Shown here: one piece after another, positions 1-5,023 of the stretch
How the letters are laid out: each line of letters starts with the position of its first letter
How positions within the stretch are numbered: the stretch's first letter is position 1
Assembly (NCBI GenBank): GCA_046351555.1
Contig: JAXLYI010000029.1
Span: 1 to 45,726, forward strand
DNA length: 45,726 bases
Source of the DNA: Polyangiales bacterium
GTDB lineage: Bacteria; Myxococcota_A; Polyangia; Polyangiales; Ga0077539
Direction: 5' to 3'
Notes under the pieces: model-generated
What the model was told of the DNA's origin: nothing
What the model saw: the letters and a program-made list of their open reading frames with translations, nothing else
Databases searched by the model: none
Position numbers and translations under genes: made by a program

Positions 1-811
1 CGAAGCTGTGGCGGAGCGTGTGGCAGCTCGCGCGCTTCGCGATGCGGGCGGCCTTCACCGCGTCGCAGACGGCCTTCTGCATCGCGCTCTCGTGCAGGTG
101 GTGGAGCGCGAGGCGATCGGTCGCCGGGTCGACGCACGGGCGCGACGCGGGGAAGACGTACTGCCACGCGAGGCTGGTGGCGGCGCCGGGCATCTTCGCG
201 CGCAGGGCGTAGGGCAGGTCGACCTCGCCGCGTCCGGCGGCGAGCTCGGCTTCGTGACGTCGGGCGACGACGTCGAGCTGGGCGCGGAGGGCTTCGCTGG
301 CGCGGTTCGGCAGGAGCGCGGGGCGGTCGCGCTCGCCCTTCGCCCGGCGAACGGTGATCTGGCGGCGGTCGAAATCGACGTCCTTCACGCGCAGGGAGAC
401 GGCTTCGAGGAGGCGCAGGCCCGCGCCGTAGAGCAGCTCGCCGAGGAGGCGGAAGGGCGGGTCGAGGTGATCGAGCAGGGCCGTCACCTCCTGGCGCGAG
501 AGCACCGCGGGGAGGTGCGCGGGGCGGCGGGCGCGTTCGAGGCCGTCGAGCGCCGGCACGTCGAGTTCGAGCACCCTGCGGTAGAGGAACACCAGCGCGC
601 AGAGCGCCTGGTTCTGCGTCGAGGCCGAGGTGCGGCGGCGGACGGCGAGGTCGTTGAGGAACGCGGTGATCTCGGGGGCGCCGAGGTCGCGCGGGTGACG
701 GCGGCCGTGGAAGGCGATGAAGGCGCGGGTCCACTGGACGTACGCCTCCTCCGTGCGCGCGGCGTAGTGCAGGCGGCGGAGGGTGGTGCGGAGGGCTTCG
801 ATCAGCGTCAT
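1..811 (-). CDS. intI: Integron integrase IntI, 5' portion. The start codon is the complement of 809-811; the C-terminus lies beyond the window start.
   Basis: The reverse-strand translation reads MTLIEALRTTLRRLHYAARTEEAYVQWTRAFIAFHGRRHPRDLGAPEITAFLNDLAVRRRTSASTQNQALCALVFLYRRVLELDVP...LLYGAGLRLLEAVSLRVKDVDFDRRQITVRRAKGERDRPALLPNR...GEVDLPYALRAKMPGAATSLAWQYVFPASRPCVDPATDRLALHHLHESAMQ...CHTLRHSF. It is collinear with IntI1, including the integron-specific extra domain (ALPxAL...WxWxxVFP) that Xer recombinases lack, and box II HxxR is present. The six-frame track only shows the antisense shadow ORF 8..1066(+). Confidence 0.93.
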   Translation of the reverse strand, partial: MTLIEALRTTLRRLHYAARTEEAYVQWTRAFIAFHGRRHPRDLGAPEITAFLNDLAVRRRTSASTQNQALCALVFLYRRVLELDVPALDGLERARRPAHLPAVLSRQEVTALLDHLDPPFRLLGELLYGAGLRLLEAVSLRVKDVDFDRRQITVRRAKGERDRPALLPNRASEALRAQLDVVARRHEAELAAGRGEVDLPYALRAKMPGAATSLAWQYVFPASRPCVDPATDRLALHHLHESAMQKAVCDAVKAARIAKRASCHTLRHSF

Positions 812-953
812 GAGGGGGCTCCAGGCGCCGCCGGGTGCGAGACGGCGCGCGGGGTTATCGACGCCGCGCAGGAAATGGTGCGTCGGGGGAGCCTCGGTAC
901 TGGACGGATGGCGAGGGGCGCAGGCGGGCGTAGGGAGATCAGGGCGGGGGCGG

Positions 954-1040
954 CCGGCGGCCTAACACGCGGGTTACCGGGTTATCGCGCCGGAGCCGGC
1001 GGCCTAACAGGCGTGTTACGGGAATACCGACGGGTTAGGC
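954..1040 (+). other. attI recombination site with two IntI-binding direct repeats and the R core GTTAGGC
   Basis: The direct repeats are CCGGCGGCCTAACAcGCGgGTTACcGGG (about 954-982) and CCGGCGGCCTAACAgGCGtGTTACgGG (about 996-1023). Each contains the inverted core GCCTAAC (960-966 and 1002-1008). The core GTTAGGC lies at 1034-1040, with a second GTTRRRY (GTTAGAC) at 1054-1060. The site sits between divergent intI and the cassette genes, as in class 1 to 3 integrons. Confidence 0.75.
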
Positions 1041-1120
1041 AGTCGAAGATGATGTTAGACAGGTGAACTAGATGACAAACTTGCGAGGCGTCGCGGACGT
1101 CGGAAGGGTGTCGACTCGGA

Positions 1121-2038
1121 ATGACTACAATCGCACAGCAATTCCGGAACTTTAAACAACGTCTCGGCAATGTGAACGCCCACATCTGCATGGTGGATGC
1201 TGTTGTCGCGAATGCCCTCGAAAGTGCACAAGATACGGATACTCCAGAACGGTATCTGGAAGAACTAGCAAAGAAGCAGCAGCACTATCTTGGCTTCAAA
1301 CAAATCCCAGAGTTGCGCAAGCCGCTGGGTTCTTTCGGCATTGTGTTCCAACATCAGGTGCTCGAAGGCTTTTTGCAGGACCTCGAAGAGTATCTACGGG
1401 GGAAACCTTCGTACAATGCTATGGATCCCAATGGCACTGATCCTCGCCCGAAGGGGGAGGACATGCTGCGGCGCTTGGTCCGAAAGCTAGTTCTCCTGGC
1501 CAACAAGCAAGAGCTACCATTAAGTTACAAAGACGAGAACGAGCGAGATGCAGCGCTGCGCGAGGAGATCTTTTGTAGTACCGTCGGCAACGTCGAGACT
1601 CACCTGATGGAATACTATCGATTGGTTCGGAATGCCGCGGTGCATGCTGATATCGATCGAATCGCCGAGAATTATTACAAAGCCCACTTTGCGAGTATGC
1701 AGTCAACGCGCAATCAAACCGAATCGACACTTGAGCAAGGAGAGCCTCAGCGATTCACGCCGGAGAAGTTGACTCGTCTCTACAAGGCTAAGCCTTCAAG
1801 TGTCAATGCCATTTCAATTGAAGATATGATCCTGTATTCGCGGGTCATGCAGAAAGTCACACGGGCACTTCTGGTGATGGCACGTCCCGACATCGAGACC
1901 GAGATACTTCCCGTTCTGAGGAAATCGTTTTCCCGCTTTGAGAGTGAAGAACGTCGCAGGAAGGCTATCGTTGGAGCGTTGTGCACAGACTATCTGCTTG
2001 ACGCAAATGTGGCAAAGGAATATGCTTCTCGTGGCTGA
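1121..2038 (+). CDS. Cassette-encoded hypothetical protein with a HEPN-like Rx4H motif; putative RNase or abortive-infection-type effector
   Basis: This is a 305-aa ORF with an ATG start and low GC. The motif ...ETHLMEYYRLVRNAAVHADIDR... carries R-N-x3-H, which is the canonical HEPN Rx4-6H active-site signature with a polar residue after R. I recognise no other family. Confidence 0.6.
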   Translation: MTTIAQQFRNFKQRLGNVNAHICMVDAVVANALESAQDTDTPERYLEELAKKQQHYLGFKQIPELRKPLGSFGIVFQHQVLEGFLQDLEEYLRGKPSYNAMDPNGTDPRPKGEDMLRRLVRKLVLLANKQELPLSYKDENERDAALREEIFCSTVGNVETHLMEYYRLVRNAAVHADIDRIAENYYKAHFASMQSTRNQTESTLEQGEPQRFTPEKLTRLYKAKPSSVNAISIEDMILYSRVMQKVTRALLVMARPDIETEILPVLRKSFSRFESEERRRKAIVGALCTDYLLDANVAKEYASRG

Positions 2039-2133
2039 CTAGCTTAGCGGTAGAGCGCTTTCGTCTCAAGCCCATCTCCATCGGCGGTGGGTTTGAGAGG
2101 AAAGAGGCAGTGGTTCGACTCCTCTGTCAGCCG
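2033..2133 (+). ncRNA. tRNA-like element: class-I tRNA scaffold with anticodon loop GUCUCA (CUC, Glu-type), discriminator G and a 30-nt insertion between positions 37 and 38
   Basis: The acceptor stem is a perfect 7 bp, GGCUGAC (2033-2039) with GUCAGCC (2126-2132). U8 and A9 are present. The D-arm is GCUU/AGCGGUA/GAGC with A14 and GG. The anticodon stem is CUUUC (2058-2062) with GAAAG (2100-2104), and the loop begins G-U33-C-U-C-A37. Positions 2069-2098 are then inserted and pair back onto the anticodon (UCUCAAGCCC with GGGUUUGAGA). The variable loop is AGGC. The T-arm is AGUGG/UUCGACU/CCUCU with G53-C61 and T54-psi-C-R-A58. No CCA is encoded. The element overlaps the ORF1 stop codon (TGA 2036-2038). 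Confidence 0.5.
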
Positions 2134-2172
2134 ATCATCTGTGAATTGCGTTTTGCAACACCGTTTGGGTAC

Positions 2173-2263
2173 GTCTAACAAGCCGATGGTGCCGACCGCC
2201 CCCTCCTCACTCACCCGCTACCCACCTGCCCCGCTGCGGCGGCACATCGGCAGGCCGTTGGGC
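2173..2263 (+). repeat. attC site of cassette 1 (91 bp; R'' GTCTAAC ... R' GTTGGGC)
   Basis: The site is GTCTAAC-aagccgatgGtgccgACcgcc-[32-nt variable centre]-gctgcggcggcacatcggcaggcc-GTTGGGC. The flanking arms are imperfect inverted repeats with unpaired G and AC, the extrahelical bases typical of attC. R'' fits RYYYAAC and R' fits GTTRRRY. The conserved arms reappear at 4933-5023. Confidence 0.72.
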
Positions 2264-2323
2264 AGCTTCGGAGTACGACGCTGCGAATGAGCAGCAGAAC
2301 CTTACAGAAAAGGCTAGGCCCAC

Positions 2324-3721
2324 GTGAAGACTGACGTAAGCAGCCAACTTGTCGTAAACATAGATCGCAAACGGTACACCGCACTTTCAGGTCTGTGGAA
2401 GAGCCCATATGCCTCTGTTATGTCAGAGGAAATAGATTGGTATTCGAATACTGACGAGTCGATCTTAGCCGTTGTGCTGCACGACTATACAGATAACGAT
2501 TACGCGGCTGTTGTGTCGATGCGCGATCTGAGCGGACGATTCAGGGCCGTTGATGTACAAGTTTCCTTCGTTACGGTTGCCGCCGCTGTCGAGTGGCTTA
2601 CAAGTACGATTTGCTCACGGTCGGAGTCCGGCGAAAAACACCATCGACAGGGGGACGAGGTGCCGTCGCTCAATCTTTTCGATCCAGTAGTCCCGCAAGA
2701 GCGACTGCATCCAGGTTTCGTGCACCTCGCCAACGACCTCGCATTTTTGCCGGGGCGATCAATCATTCGAGAATTGATGCCTCATTATCATGACATCGAC
2801 GGGAACTTTGTCAGTCAGTTCCAATCAAGCGGGTTTGACGCGAGAACATGGGAACTGTATCTGTTCACCTACTTCAAAGAGGAGGAGTTATTCCTCGATC
2901 GAACTCATCGCTCCCCGGACTTTATTGTCAGCAAGTTTGATCGCAGCGTTGCCGTTGAGGCCGTTATTGTAGGCCGCCAGCTTGACAACCCACCGAAACG
3001 AGGAATTGTTAAGGCTCCCAAGTCTGCAACTGAAATTCAAGAACTGCAAAAAGATCTCATGCCAATCCGATTTGGCAGTCCACTGAACTCGAAGCTTCGA
3101 AAGAAATATTGGAGATCTCCGCATGTTCGTGGTTTGCCGCTCATCTTTGCGATAGCTGACTTCCATGATGATCAGTCTATGCTGTGGTCGTCGACAGCGC
3201 TGGGTAATTACCTTTATGGTTACCGTCATGAGCATTATTATGACGAATCTGGAACACTTGTCGTCAAACCAATCAAAATCAATTCGCACAAATTCGGCGA
3301 CAAAAAGATTCCCTCTGGTTTTTTCTTCTTGCCTGGTGCGGAGAACGTCAGCGCGGTGCTTTTCTCTGCTTCCGGGACGATTTCAAAGTTTAATCGGCTC
3401 GGACGCCAAGCGGGTTTTGCTCACCCTGGAGTGAGAATGTTTCGCAGAGGAACTCTGCACGATCACGACCCGAACGCTTCAGTGCCGCACATCTTCAGTT
3501 ACGAAGTGGATGAAACGAGTGAGGAAACGTGGGGTGAGGGGCTTTCGATGTTTCATAACCCGAAAGCTAAGTTTCCAGTCCCGCGGGAGCTTTTTCCGAG
3601 CATCGCCCATCACTATTTCGAAGATGGCCACATCAGAAGTGTTCTGCCGGAGATCTTTGTATATTCGTCGACCACGATTCACATGATTGCTCGCGACGAC
3701 GGAGGGGAGGAAAATGCATAG
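2324..3721 (+). CDS. Cassette-encoded hypothetical protein (465 aa) with a possible PD-x(n)-E nuclease-like patch
   Basis: The ORF starts at a GTG and has low GC with no good RBS. The segment ...WELYLFTYFKEEELFLDRTHRSPDFIVSKFDRSVAVEAVIVG... resembles the E ... PD ... (D/E)x(K) core of restriction-endonuclease-fold enzymes, but the K is not evident. I recognise no other family. Confidence 0.55.
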   Translation: MKTDVSSQLVVNIDRKRYTALSGLWKSPYASVMSEEIDWYSNTDESILAVVLHDYTDNDYAAVVSMRDLSGRFRAVDVQVSFVTVAAAVEWLTSTICSRSESGEKHHRQGDEVPSLNLFDPVVPQERLHPGFVHLANDLAFLPGRSIIRELMPHYHDIDGNFVSQFQSSGFDARTWELYLFTYFKEEELFLDRTHRSPDFIVSKFDRSVAVEAVIVGRQLDNPPKRGIVKAPKSATEIQELQKDLMPIRFGSPLNSKLRKKYWRSPHVRGLPLIFAIADFHDDQSMLWSSTALGNYLYGYRHEHYYDESGTLVVKPIKINSHKFGDKKIPSGFFFLPGAENVSAVLFSASGTISKFNRLGRQAGFAHPGVRMFRRGTLHDHDPNASVPHIFSYEVDETSEETWGEGLSMFHNPKAKFPVPRELFPSIAHHYFEDGHIRSVLPEIFVYSSTTIHMIARDDGGEENA

Positions 3722-3783
3722 ACAGAGCGCTGCCGTCGGCGAAATTGATTTTCTTGATTCGCTGTTTGTGCTAGCTTTGCTGC

Positions 3784-3876
3784 GTGACCTAGCTGAATGT
3801 GCCTAACTCAGTTCAGCTTGGCGCCGCAGCAATGTGTGATGCGTTAGATCTGATCCGCACATGAATGCTAGGTCAC
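3784..3876. repeat. 93-bp imperfect palindrome in the ORF2-ORF3 intergenic region with embedded integron core-like motifs
   Basis: GTGACCTAGC (3784-3793) is the exact reverse complement of GCTAGGTCAC (3867-3876). The inner arms share ATGTGC/GCACAT. The centre is GGCGCC. GCCTAAC lies at 3801-3807 and GTTAGAT at 3843-3849. Confidence 0.5.
3801..3849 (+). repeat. Possible short or degenerate attC-like site (R'' GCCTAAC ... R' GTTAGAT)
   Basis: GCCTAAC fits RYYYAAC and GTTAGAT fits GTTRRRY. GCCTAAC also pairs almost perfectly with G+TTGGGC, which is the R' this cassette would carry when circular. However, the site is only 49 bp, its internal L arms are not complementary, and it is unlike the uniform 91-bp attC family. 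Confidence 0.3.
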
Positions 3877-3944
3877 ACTACCCCCTTCTTACATCACCGC
3901 CCCAACCGCCGCTCTCTAGCCGCGAAGCTTGAGTCAGGAGCACT

Positions 3945-4904
3945 GTGACTACCAAGCGACAAGAGGCTGTCGGTCTCAACCACGTTTCGCGTATTGTTCA
4001 AGTTTCGTGGTCAAGCGGATGGCAGGGAATTGACCCGCAGAACGATGACGCAGTTGATGGGGTCGTGTTCTTTCGTCAGCGAGATCGCGACACCGGGCAA
4101 ATTGCGTTTGTGCAGGTGAAGTCAGGACCGAGTTACTATCGCGAATGGAAGACGTCGCCTGATGTAGTTGGTGTGCAACTGGGCGAAGACTATATCAACA
4201 AACATCGTCCCCGCTGGAACTCACTGCCAGGGCCTGTTGTTTTGGTCTATGTTCTCGAGAGAGAAAAGAAGAAACCACTGTCATGGTGGGCGGATCTTCG
4301 ATGCGAGGAGTCGTACTCGCTCACGAACAAGCAGGTTGTCTTGCTTCAGAGGCACAACACGTTTGGTCCTCACTCGAAGGGGCATATCCGGCGACTAGCT
4401 AAAGCCGTTACGCTAGATTTGCCGACTATTGTCGCGCGGCGTCGAGATATCAACCTGAGTCCCCTTGGACACCAGTTCAAGTCCGCAATTCGGCAGGCTT
4501 ATGTTGATTGGGGGCATGCTGTAAATGCGGAGCGCGCTCACCCTACACTCGGAGTTGTGGAGGTATCGCGTGTTGGATGGCGCCACATAACTCGGCTTGG
4601 CCGCCGTCCAGAGCGTATTATTCATAGCTTGCATCTGCTTGGAATAGCTCGCCAGATGATCGTCCACGGGGGAAGCGTCAGTCCCATCGGACGAGCAAAG
4701 AGCCAGACGAGAGCGAACGGAGCACACGAGGTGCTGGACTACCTCGCACTTCGAGCCAATGTCGTATTTCCTCATCGAGGTCCGGCAATTGTGCAGGTCG
4801 TATTGCGCCGCAAGCGGATGATAGGCAAAAACGGAACGACGTCGCAACGATTGTGGTTTTACTCTGTGTACGAGTTGGGCCGTTCAACGCATAGATCGGC
4901 CTAA
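3945..4904 (+). CDS. Cassette-encoded protein with an N-terminal Mrr/Cap4-like PD-(D/E)xK nuclease domain (DUF4365/DUF4297-like) and an unknown C-terminal half
   Basis: The ORF starts at GTG 3945, preceded by AGGAG (3936-3940) at 4-nt spacing. The N-terminus ...GWQGIDPQNDDAVDGVVFFRQRDRDTGQIAFVQVKSG... has the D-x(n)-(Q/E)xK arrangement of the Mrr/Cap4 restriction-endonuclease fold. The protein is 319 aa and GC is about 52%. Confidence 0.6.
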   Translation: MTTKRQEAVGLNHVSRIVQVSWSSGWQGIDPQNDDAVDGVVFFRQRDRDTGQIAFVQVKSGPSYYREWKTSPDVVGVQLGEDYINKHRPRWNSLPGPVVLVYVLEREKKKPLSWWADLRCEESYSLTNKQVVLLQRHNTFGPHSKGHIRRLAKAVTLDLPTIVARRRDINLSPLGHQFKSAIRQAYVDWGHAVNAERAHPTLGVVEVSRVGWRHITRLGRRPERIIHSLHLLGIARQMIVHGGSVSPIGRAKSQTRANGAHEVLDYLALRANVVFPHRGPAIVQVVLRRKRMIGKNGTTSQRLWFYSVYELGRSTHRSA

Positions 4905-4932
4905 GGAAGGCTCAGGGTATCTTGACGCAACT

Positions 4933-5023
4933 GCCCAACAAGCCGATGGTGGCGACCGCCCCCACTGCTGCCGTCGAACAAGCACCTGGCCTACTGCGGC
5001 GCCACATCGGCCAGCCGTTCGAC
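4933..5023 (+). repeat. attC site (91 bp; R'' GCCCAAC ... GTTCGAC) closing the low-GC cassette block
   Basis: The site is GCCCAAC-aagccgatggtgGcgaccgcc-[variable centre]-tgcggcgCcacatcggcCagcc-GTTCGAC. Its arms are nearly identical to attC1 (2173-2263) and it has the same 91-bp length. The centre is variable, as in attC families of chromosomal integrons. Confidence 0.7.

Follow-up and report, generated by a model that had tools for sequence, protein, structure and literature searches.

The closest known analogues of the module described here are AbiF with its RNA and Ro60 with the tRNA-like Y RNAs. AbiF (Abi_2, HEPN-like) is a toxin neutralised by the direct binding of a co-transcribed structured RNA, RCd22 in C. 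difficile (PMC12373285), and RiboL-PSP-HEPN proteins have been described as distantly related to AbiD/F (PMC3710099). In type III systems the antitoxin consists of tandem 34-50-nt repeats that precede the toxin gene, and the toxin processes them (PMC12373285). Among the Y RNAs, tRNA enzymes recognise YrlA, and an RNA of this kind whose acceptor stem has 7 bp is a substrate of RNase P and acquires CCA (PMC4201824).

In a 45,726-nt stretch of a Polyangiales genome (the window), we found a gene for a HEPN-like protein that overlaps a tRNA-shaped RNA at its 3' end. No prior description of a HEPN protein paired with a tRNA-mimic RNA was found in the literature or family libraries searched, in agreement with the initial annotation, which knew of no system with such an arrangement. 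The module may be a toxin/RNA-antidote or anti-phage system of a kind not described so far. Its features and those of the integron around it are listed in Table 1.

Table 1. Positions in the window of the integron features, ORF1 and the tRNA-shaped RNA
Feature	Position	Strand	Basis or details
intI integron integrase, 5' part, continuing past the window start	1..811	-	Pfam Phage_int_SAM_4 (E 1.6e-27) and Phage_integrase (E 1e-16)
attI core site GTTAGGC, left edge of cassette 1	1034..1040	+	GTTRRRY core; GCCTAAC inverted repeats ahead of it at 960 and 1002
ORF1, 305 aa, HEPN-like protein, putative RNase/toxin	1121..2038	+	
Codons of the Rx4H (HEPN-type) motif, R170-N-A-A-V-H175	1628..1645	+	R170, 1628-1630; H175, 1643-1645
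Sigma-70-like promoter in the ORF1 3' end	1998..2026	+	TTGACG, 17-nt spacer, TATGCT; -10 hexamer ends 6 nt before RNA nucleotide 1
tRNA-like RNA, 101 nt	2033..2133	+	Acceptor 2033-2039/2126-2132; D arm 2042-2056; anticodon stem 2058-2062/2100-2104; T arm 2109-2125; discriminator 2133
37-nt insert in place of the 7-nt anticodon loop	2063..2099	+	G.G mismatch (2063/2099), U-A pair, then 12-bp hairpin 2065-2076/2086-2097 with 9-nt loop
attC of cassette 1, right edge	2173..2263	+	R'' GTCTAAC ... R' GTTGGGC; sequence reading and motif positions

The putative HEPN-type protein and its integron setting

ORF1 and the tRNA-like RNA are the first cassette of a small integron. The intI gene has a host-like G+C content (74%), which falls to about 51% at the attI core; a low-G+C block (1000-5000) lies here within a 75% G+C genome. 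As in integron gene cassettes generally, attI and attC core sites beside intI bound the ORF1 and RNA pair, and since the attC lies to the right of both, they are mobilised as a single cassette. The same integron has PD-T7-1 (602 bits) and a cassette with a DUF4365 nuclease as its neighbours; it is known that cassettes of integrons act as a reservoir for defence systems (bioRxiv 10.1101/2024.07.02.601686).

The ORF1 product contains YYRLVRNAAVHAD at residues 165-177, and RNAAVH within it (residues 170-175) conforms to the HEPN motif, Rx4-6H and often R-N/H/D-x3-H. A single Rx4H motif in 305 aa is unremarkable by chance; what makes this one meaningful is that R170 and H175 are the sole invariant columns in an alignment of 89 family sequences with a mean identity of about 21%. 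N171 is kept in at least 90% of the same sequences. The length of ORF1 and its motif are thus as first annotated, although its G+C content is 50.8% rather than the 47% given. The initial annotation could name no family for it, and Pfam, NCBIfam and PADLOC gave no match, including none to a curated HEPN profile. Foldseek against the PDB produced no match, and phmmer and profile searches against PDB sequences returned nothing useful for the family, which comprises about 190 clusters at 50% identity, all annotated as "hypothetical protein". The Pfam matches of the 89 members are all sub-threshold, the commonest being HEPN_RiboL-PSP (four members), HEPN_Swt1 (three) and HepT-like_2 (one). Abi_2 gave no Pfam match in ORF1, nor is it one of the 25 families listed as commonest in the 89 members. 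An hhalign comparison of the family profile with one Bacteroidota RiboL-PSP-HEPN protein aligned 19 residues around the motif with a probability of 0.5%, covering the motif region alone, and we make no claim of homology between the two families beyond it. We take ORF1 to be a putative all-helical protein of about 300 aa from an uncurated branch of the HEPN superfamily. R170 and H175 are its presumed metal-independent RNase active site, and as other HEPN enzymes do, it would probably dimerise to complete this site.

Structure of the tRNA-shaped RNA and its overlap with ORF1

The Rfam tRNA model (RF00005) matches the whole element with 44.9 bits (E = 1.4e-7, gathering score 29), the homologous RNAs score 38-53 bits with the same model, and the element folds at -54.6 kcal/mol (z = -4.8 vs shuffles), all of which bears out the proposal of a tRNA-shaped element overlapping ORF1. 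Where a tRNA has a 7-nt anticodon loop with U33 and a purine at 37, a base-paired insert is found instead. Such inserts, 23-63 nt long, are present in all relatives, and the insert of every homologue folds as a long hairpin. In an alignment of six sequences, 92.9% of the cells are paired and 14 pairs have compensatory changes (1-3 in slid controls), with seven such pairs in the insert hairpin (helix 3); with 17 RNA sequences, compensatory change is seen in 18 of the 25 consensus pairs. The cloverleaf and its extra hairpin are therefore supported by compensatory changes. The near-invariant parts are the D stem (GCUU/RAGC), the elbow nucleotides G18 G19 and the T loop (GGUUCRAnUCC), and the 7-bp acceptor stem is conserved in the family.

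ARAGORN in default mode called no tRNA anywhere in the window, the element included, which indicates that it is tRNA-shaped and not a normal tRNA gene; with introns allowed, it called the elements as tRNAs with a 23-39-nt "intron". Standard tRNA finders miss the tRNA-like RNA. An Rfam search of positions 800-4200 at E values up to 10 found the tRNA match plus two chance microRNA/snoRNA matches, with no abiF motif and no other family. The element is the only match in the window to R1, a covariance model made from 17 RNAs that include the element itself; this model is close to the tRNA model and does not separate family RNAs from real tRNAs, so it is unfit on its own for a census.

The RNA is present in a single copy, downstream of ORF1 and overlapping it. 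The stop codon of ORF1, TGA (2036-2038), had been assigned to the acceptor stem, where it does lie, although at positions 4-6 and not at the first nucleotides. In most loci the stop codon falls between +3 and +50 of the RNA: it is at +3 for the window, L001 and L003, at +50 for L004 and L005, and at +7 or +12 for many of the rest. In L006/L007, L008 and L131 it is 6-12 nt ahead of the RNA. The C terminus ...G(W/P/S)LA, shared by many proteins of the family, is the translated acceptor-plus-D-stem sequence.

The 3' end of ORF1 also includes a promoter whose predicted start is approximately RNA nucleotide 1 and which is conserved across the ORF1 clade at synonymous sites. All seven genes have the same nucleotide at only four of 259 third-codon positions, three of which are in or beside the promoter hexamers; the promoter is thus conserved at the DNA level. 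A promoter score of at least 9 out of 12 was obtained in seven of 18 loci, against a background of 1%. Outside the ORF1 clade, few loci give a strong signal. With an embedded promoter of its own, the RNA of the ORF1 clade can be made in excess of the protein. No terminator-like site was found between ORF1 and the RNA in a terminator scan, and a simple scan 3' of the RNA found no intrinsic terminator.

Distribution of the pair and of similar RNAs beside other proteins

The same RNA was found at the 3' end of the gene in 15 of the 17 loci retrieved with the protein, down to about 20-25% protein identity. Since the pairing recurs in these independently retrieved homologous loci, the juxtaposition is far beyond chance, which supports, at the level of sequence, the early suggestion of a possible RNase effector with an RNA partner. 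All five ORF1-clade homologues with DNA available have the RNA, as do the distant clades P0007, P0010, P0021, P0018, P0016 and P0017 and plasmids of Bernardetia and Acaryochloris; in P0019 only its 5' half is seen, because the contig ends there. Two plasmid-borne relatives, on Rhizobium p_2 and Methylobacterium pMRAD03, have no detectable RNA, so the protein can apparently exist alone. When species-representative genomes were scanned with a pattern of the RNA alone, at least 119 loci were obtained, among them archaeal intron-containing tRNAs and tandem normal tRNAs, which were filtered out, and a family ORF lies directly upstream of the RNA in at least nine genomes (from Myxococcota, Alphaproteobacteria, Acidobacteriota, Planctomycetota, Bacteroidota, Cyanobacteria, a "delta proteobacterium", Gammaproteobacteria and Bacillota). 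The gene and the RNA are kept together in at least eight phyla; the two parts exist, are co-inherited and are under purifying selection.

The module is located in integron cassettes, defence islands and plasmids, some of them conjugative. Neighbours of the homologues include a type I restriction-modification system plus Bub, a type I CRISPR Cas3, and ParE/YoeB in an integron-like array; we found no conserved effector partner adjoining the module in these neighbourhoods. A first exact DNA pattern, derived from the ORF1-clade RNAs, had no match in viral/metagenome contigs, a collection evidently lacking the JGI metagenomes of L006/L007. Searches with tblastn gave no match for ORF1 or P0018 in 50,697 phage genomes and none for ORF1 in plasmids, and P0018 matched four plasmids.

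The pattern written from the HEPN-associated RNAs also retrieved tRNA-like RNAs adjoining Ro60/TROVE genes (L027, L105 and L035), with the same near-invariant D-arm and T-loop sequences. No TROVE/Ro60 Pfam domain was found among the called genes around the ORF1 homologues or in the three cassettes of the window. In a second HEPN family, RiboL-PSP-HEPN, the RNA is on the opposite side of the gene, so the pairing is independent of one regulatory geometry; an example is the Bacteroidota locus L070 of Pedobacter psychroterrae, with the RNA ahead of the gene. The effectors seen with tRNA-shaped RNAs are the ORF1 HEPN family, RiboL-PSP-HEPN, Ro60/TROVE, DUF2828 and a RING-like family. It is conceivable, but in our judgement improbable, that tRNA-shaped RNAs with a hairpin for an anticodon are a general modular "tRNA-decoy" sensor placed on different effectors, in which a phage enzyme that attacks tRNAs hits the decoy and frees the HEPN nuclease. 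The decoy of the HEPN module would then guard the tRNA pool against phage enzymes that cleave, modify, repair or sequester tRNAs, and this would amount to an RNA-based guard/decoy immune logic, so far undescribed in bacteria.

Possible roles of the RNA and comparison with known systems

The reading to which we lean, tentatively, is that the tRNA mimic restrains the nuclease and that the two form a type III-like toxin-antitoxin or abortive-infection system. Its components would be the HEPN-like protein, with R170/H175 as the presumed RNase site, and the RNA of about 100 nt, which appears to retain the acceptor stem, D arm, T arm and elbow contacts of tRNA; with the anticodon triplet replaced by a 10-25-bp hairpin, this RNA has no cleavable or decodable anticodon loop. 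It would bind the HEPN protein as a tRNA-shaped pseudo-substrate and hold it inactive, a type III-like antitoxin by analogy with RCd22 for AbiF. The trigger could be an infection or transcription shut-off that ends the RNA supply, or a tRNA-attacking phage factor that destroys or titrates the RNA, and the freed nuclease would cut cellular RNA, most plausibly tRNA anticodon loops, leading to translation arrest and aborted infection. We infer the RNase activity, the tRNA target, the direct RNA-protein complex, the inhibitory sign and the anti-phage function. The relatives lacking the RNA (Rhizobium p_2 and Methylobacterium pMRAD03), the patchy promoter signal and an architecture unlike characterised type III systems count against an antitoxin, and an activating or tethering role of the RNA fits the comparative data equally well in most respects.

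Such a role, which we consider possible but rather unlikely, would make the RNA a positive cofactor that tethers or targets the HEPN protein to machinery recognising the tRNA shape (ribosome, EF-Tu, RNase P, modification/repair enzymes), or a sensor that switches the nuclease on when a phage factor modifies or cleaves the RNA. The conserved G18 G19, GGUUCRA T loop and 7-bp acceptor exceed what a simple protein-binding hairpin needs, suggesting recognition by host tRNA enzymes, and the RiboL-PSP-HEPN loci, whose RNA flanks the gene at its opposite end, speak against a fixed regulatory geometry. The similar RNAs adjoining Ro60/TROVE genes point the same way, since the Y RNAs there are known tethers and gates (PMC4201824). 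However, the neighbourhoods have no conserved effector partner, the closest documented HEPN-RNA pair (AbiF/RCd22) is inhibitory, and an internal promoter with excess RNA suits an antidote better than a stoichiometric cofactor. It is also doubtful, although compatible with an antitoxin (the two can coexist), that the tRNA-like structure acts as a cis signal at which an RNase P/RNase Z cut sets the mRNA 3' end and removes the stop codon, so that the product of the non-stop mRNA is tagged and degraded and the protein accumulates only when tRNA processing is disturbed. The position of the stop codon inside the RNA in most loci and the C termini encoded by the acceptor-plus-D-stem would fit this, as would the 7-bp acceptor stem, the main RNase P determinant; a Y RNA with such a stem undergoes the cut and CCA addition mentioned above (PMC4201824). 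In L006/L007, L008 and L131, however, the stop codon precedes the RNA, so its removal cannot be the universal purpose; processing by RNase P/RNase Z needs no long co-varying hairpin in the anticodon arm, and a dedicated promoter at RNA nucleotide 1 implies a free-standing RNA.

We strongly disfavour, as very improbable, the reading that a tRNA gene happens to adjoin ORF1, be it an ordinary one, an intron-containing one or the decayed remnant of one used for integration. The score above the Rfam tRNA threshold and the ARAGORN calls with introns allowed would agree with it, and mobile elements often adjoin tRNA genes, as the P4-type integrase beside the L032 element does. But the ARAGORN "anticodons" vary by locus (Leu, Val, Glu, Trp, Arg, His, Phe, Thr), unlike the D arm, which hardly differs between loci, as expected of one RNA family and not of a set of isoacceptors. 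The insert is paired through the anticodon positions and co-varies. The element is located within the cassette, ORF1 on one side of it and attC on the other, and it accompanies the gene in at least eight phyla. To our knowledge, the splicing endonuclease for such tRNA introns is absent from bacteria. An intron-containing tRNA spliced by the HEPN enzyme was rejected in view of the inconsistent putative anticodons and the near-identical D arm across loci.

If the antidote reading is true, the module represents a new architecture of RNA-controlled toxins, with a full tRNA-mimic antidote located downstream, overlapping the HEPN gene and with its promoter in the last codons. Research on HEPN anticodon nucleases, on type III toxin-antitoxin systems and on the tRNA-like Y RNAs of bacteria, so far pursued in isolation from one another, would be joined by it. 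With a total length of about 1.1 kb the module is directly testable, and a tRNA-shaped RNA recognised but not cut by a nuclease could serve as a specific inhibitor or scaffold.

Of the HEPN anticodon nucleases and HEPN toxins, PrrC is restrained by the protein EcoprrI and HepT by AMPylation through its MNT protein, and HepS is triggered by a phage tail-tip protein; no tRNA-shaped RNA partner is known for PrrC, RloC, HepS or HEPN-MNT/HepT. ORF1 has no NTPase or MNT neighbour. Type III systems are frequently anti-phage, via abortive infection, and ToxIN, AbiQ, CptIN and TenpIN resemble the ORF1 module in pairing an endoRNase (putative here) with a cis-encoded RNA. Antidote RNA in excess would be a further shared trait, obtained in type III systems with a terminator that separates the RNA from the toxin gene and in the ORF1 module through the internal promoter. 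Their toxins, however, have a different fold, not HEPN. Tandem RNA repeats upstream of the toxin and a terminator between the two are not found here; the gene order is reversed, and a single-copy RNA downstream of the gene is unlike every characterised type III system. The likeness to AbiF is that of a HEPN-type protein encoded beside a short structured RNA of the same strand. A further link is RiboL-PSP-HEPN, which among Pfam families is the nearest, if weak, relative of the ORF1 family. The RNA of AbiF is a 5' leader with two repeated motifs, whereas that of ORF1 is downstream, overlaps the stop codon, is single-copy and forms a full tRNA cloverleaf. The YrlA-type Y RNAs are similar in size (about 100 nt), in their tRNA-like module with near-invariant D and T arms, which the ORF1-family RNAs also have, and in being encoded beside a protein partner; the YrlA motif GNCGAAN0-1G matches one of 18 RNAs and is absent from the other 17. 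YrlA and Ro60 belong to the rsr-rtcBA RNA-repair operon, whereas the RNAs of the ORF1 family have a HEPN-like partner and reside in defence islands and mobile elements.

A protein family co-inherited with a tRNA-like RNA

ORF1, the HEPN-like protein gene of the first cassette, and the tRNA-like RNA overlapping its stop codon are co-inherited, which is the central result of this analysis, and the pair is under selection. Among loci retrieved through the protein alone, 15 of 17 carry the RNA with the gene. All five ORF1-clade homologues with available DNA have it at or overlapping the 3' end of the gene (Rfam tRNA scores of 38-50 bits), and it is also present in the loci of the family proteins P0007, P0010 (Corallococcus, about 28% identical), P0021, P0018 and P0016, as well as in plasmid copies from Bernardetia and Acaryochloris marina (pREB4). 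The P0019 locus holds only the 5' half, where the contig ends. The P0017 RNA has a divergent D arm and was missed by Rfam; it scored 55.7 bits with a covariance model of family RNAs that is essentially a tRNA model. No tRNA-like RNA was found, with filters off, within 400 nt of two distant plasmid-borne relatives (L136 and L138). These proteins share 24-27% identity with P0018, their C-termini are longer (315-328 aa), and they may have another partner, or none. In the reverse direction, one genome per species was searched with a degenerate pattern of the RNA only. Among the matches listed, a family ORF lay directly 5' of the RNA in at least nine genomes, from Myxococcota, Alphaproteobacteria, Acidobacteriota, Planctomycetota, Bacteroidota, Cyanobacteria, a deltaproteobacterium, Gammaproteobacteria and Bacillota.

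ORF1 has the length and motif peptide described in the initial annotation, with a measured G+C content of 50.8% instead of the 47% quoted there. Its family could not be named then, and we found no match in Pfam, NCBIfam, PADLOC or PDB sequences. The identical protein is on record from a Polyangiales MAG. Otherwise, a word-indexed search of 5.8 billion proteins returned just five clusters, sharing 40-63% identity, and 1.84 billion representatives, searched with a profile, gave 193 family clusters at E-values up to 1e-3, nearly all of 255-305 aa. The ORF1 protein carries a catalytic-type motif, and R170 and H175 are the only invariant columns in an alignment of 89 family sequences (mean identity of about 21%), where G16, Y165, R167, N171, P225, D235 and R278 are at least 90% conserved. 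A match of the family to a curated HEPN profile was sought and not found; the commonest sub-threshold Pfam matches across the family were HEPN_RiboL-PSP (four members), HEPN_Swt1 (three) and HepT-like_2 (one), and a Ribonuc_2-5A (KEN/HEPN) match in P0007 falls over the motif. These proteins probably form a new HEPN family outside the curated ones, the evidence for the fold being suggestive rather than decisive. The NCBI gene call of ORF1 (P0001, 288 aa) starts 17 codons 3' of the ATG at 1121. The homologues can be aligned over residues 1-20, with L15, G16 and N19 invariant there, so the annotated start, which omits window positions 1121-1171, is probably wrong.

Structure and predicted promoter of the RNA

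The tRNA-shaped element noted initially at the end of ORF1 was confirmed by its Rfam score and by its fold energy (-54.6 kcal/mol, z = -4.8). According to the Rfam model, 37 nt occupy the place of the 7-nt anticodon loop. The anticodon helix continues through a G.G mismatch (equivalent to positions 32/38) and a U-A pair into a 12-bp hairpin with a 9-nt loop, and the "anticodon" nucleotides are therefore paired. The RNA retains all the requirements of the tRNA L shape, without an anticodon loop. In six ORF1-clade RNAs, 92.9% of cells are paired, with compensatory changes in 14 pairs versus one to three when the 3' partners were slid, and the covariation score was matched by none of 500 shuffles. 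Compensatory changes affect 18 of the 25 RNAalifold pairs in 17 distant-clade RNAs, whose D stem, G18 G19 and T loop are invariant. The insert of other clades (23-63 nt) is in every case a single long hairpin, typically CCCCC-U(C)-CA... / ...UG-A(A)-GGGGG, with one or two non-canonical positions kept at the equivalents of 32-33 / 37-38. ARAGORN in default mode found no tRNA anywhere in the window; together with the covariation, the intron-allowed ARAGORN calls and the D-arm comparison, this essentially excludes an ordinary, intron-containing or remnant tRNA.

Relative to RNA nucleotide 1, the stop codons of the family range from -12 to +50, with +3, +7 and +12 the usual positions; the TGA of ORF1 occupies acceptor-stem positions 4-6, and not the first nucleotides of the stem as had been proposed. 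Since the stop codon usually falls inside the RNA, the acceptor and D stems (GGNTGGCTAGCTTAG) are translated as ...G(W/P/S)LA at the C-terminus of many family proteins (P0012, P0019, P0021, P0027, P0042 and others), and this C-terminal "conservation" is thus partly imposed by the RNA gene.

The -10 hexamer of a candidate promoter lies 5' of RNA nucleotide 1, with 6 nt between them. The pattern TTGAC(A/G)-17-TA(T/C)G(C/T)T is found in all seven ORF1-clade genes, with a weaker -35 in L006, and 7 of 18 family loci score at least 9/12 at the right distance, compared with 1% of control positions in the same genes. Third-codon positions in the ORF1 clade are saturated: of 259 ungapped columns, the seven genes all agree in just 4. 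Three of these four columns lie in or immediately beside the two hexamers, in the NTT codon (TT of TTGAC), in its 5' neighbor and in the G(C/T)T codon, whose last T closes the -10. This clustering of conserved synonymous sites indicates a DNA element selected in its own right. The predicted internal promoter could make RNA production independent of the ORF1 message and allow it to exceed that message.

Integron and defence setting

The left end of the window is a small integron in a genome of 75% G+C, with a block of about 4 kb and about 50% G+C after attI that contains three cassettes. Taken together, the three cassettes resemble a small bank of defence genes, and a role as reservoirs of compact defence systems is documented for integron cassettes (bioRxiv 10.1101/2024.07.02.601686).

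Coordinates of features in the window and in related loci
Feature	Position	Strand	Details
Tyrosine-recombinase gene	1-811	-	integron-integrase domain pair (domain matches)
attI region	1034		core site GTTAGGC, after integrase gene
Cassette 1 (ORF1 and RNA)	1034 to attC 2173-2263		attC GTCTAAC ... GTTGGGC
ORF1	1121-2038	+	305 aa, peptide YYRLVRNAAVHAD
Candidate promoter	1998-2026		TTGACG, 17-nt spacer, TATGCT (consensus scan)
tRNA-like RNA	2033-2133	+	Rfam tRNA model 44.9 bits (gathering score 29)
Acceptor stem	2033-2039 / 2126-2132		7 bp
D arm			UAGCUUAGCGGUAGAGC, with G18 G19
Anticodon stem	2058-2062 / 2100-2104		5 bp
Variable region			4 nt
T arm			GGUUCGACUCC
3' end of RNA			discriminator base present; CCA not encoded
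Cassette 2	2324-3721	+	full-length PD-T7-1 anti-phage protein, PADLOC 602 bits
Cassette 3	3945-4904	+	DUF4365 restriction-endonuclease-like protein, weak match to PADLOC Aga REase model
RNA-less relative, L136	CDS 3878-4864		Rhizobium leguminosarum p_2
RNA-less relative, L138	CDS 3947-4894		Methylobacterium radiotolerans pMRAD03
Bacteroidota tRNA-like RNA, L070	4006-4103	-	
Orphan tRNA-like RNA, L056	4631-4737	-	Schlesneria
Orphan tRNA-like RNA, L100	7713-7808	+	Acidovorax delafieldii; cut by locus end

Homologues occur in defence islands and on mobile elements. A type I restriction-modification operon and a Bub ubiquitin-like defence operon flank the L006 homologue, another is beside a type I CRISPR-Cas locus, and that of L008 shares an array close to an integrase with a ParE/YoeB toxin. 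Further homologues adjoin recombinases and methyltransferases or are carried by conjugative plasmids. No relatives were found in 50,697 phage genomes.

Related RNAs and possible function

The RNA-only scan also gave bacterial tRNA-like RNAs with an anticodon-arm insert beside other proteins. Those adjoining Ro60/TROVE-vWA genes (L027, L105, L035) are the known YrlA-type tRNA-like Y RNAs (PMC4201824); others adjoin DUF2828/DUF7788 proteins (L029, L055, L108). The D-arm and T-loop sequences of these two groups and of the HEPN-associated RNAs are nearly the same, suggesting shared ancestry or dependence on a common host factor. In Cytophagales / Saprospiraceae, RNAs of 113-125 nt with long inserts (five in a row at L020, 3021-4083, minus strand; one Rfam match each at L080 and L086) precede a protein of 650-770 aa whose sole Pfam signal is a weak Prok-RING_4 match. 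In a Polyangiaceae MAG (L027, 2180-7740), about 30 tRNA genes in two blocks flank the Ro60 gene and several tRNA-like RNAs. "Orphan" RNAs at L056, L100, L025 and L081, scoring 43-58 bits with the essentially tRNA-type covariance model, have no recognizable family ORF or other recurrent neighbor beside them.

At least five Bacteroidota genomes (L019, L023, L070, L074, L127) pair a tRNA-like RNA, its anticodon replaced by a hairpin, with a HEPN_RiboL-PSP protein of about 315 aa (42 bits, Pfam threshold 28.4) that has RNSIGH near its C-terminus. RiboL-PSP-HEPN has been described as a distant relative of AbiD/AbiF (PMC3710099), and AbiF is neutralized by a structured RNA (PMC12373285). Here the RNA is directly 5' of the gene, its 3' end lying no more than about 10 nt from the start of the ORF. 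Two HEPN families with opposite gene orders relative to such an RNA argue for a functional RNA-protein relationship and not a positional accident.

Several HEPN enzymes act on tRNA anticodon loops. By analogy, the ORF1 protein would be an RNase, most plausibly cutting these loops, and the RNA would bind it as an uncleavable tRNA look-alike and keep it silent until infection, when loss, damage or titration of the RNA would free the nuclease. We favor this mechanism tentatively, as a whole that may well be correct. That the RNA is instead a required cofactor, tether or sensor, similar to a Y RNA, is the main rival, and we consider it rather unlikely. A role in cis, with RNase P cutting at the acceptor stem so that the stop codon is lost and toxin synthesis is curbed, appears improbable; it would be compatible with the RNA being either antidote or cofactor, but it is not universal, because the stop codon precedes the RNA in four loci.

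No curated family covers the ORF1-type protein or its RNA, and the plasmid-borne family proteins are "hypothetical" in RefSeq and GenBank. The initial annotation knew of no described system with this arrangement. This agrees with the full-text literature searched, most subscription-journal papers being outside it, where we found no account of a HEPN protein and a tRNA-like RNA as partners. The component ideas are all already known (toxins of the HEPN type, antitoxins made of RNA, and protein-bound tRNA mimics in bacteria), and the module is therefore not categorically new.
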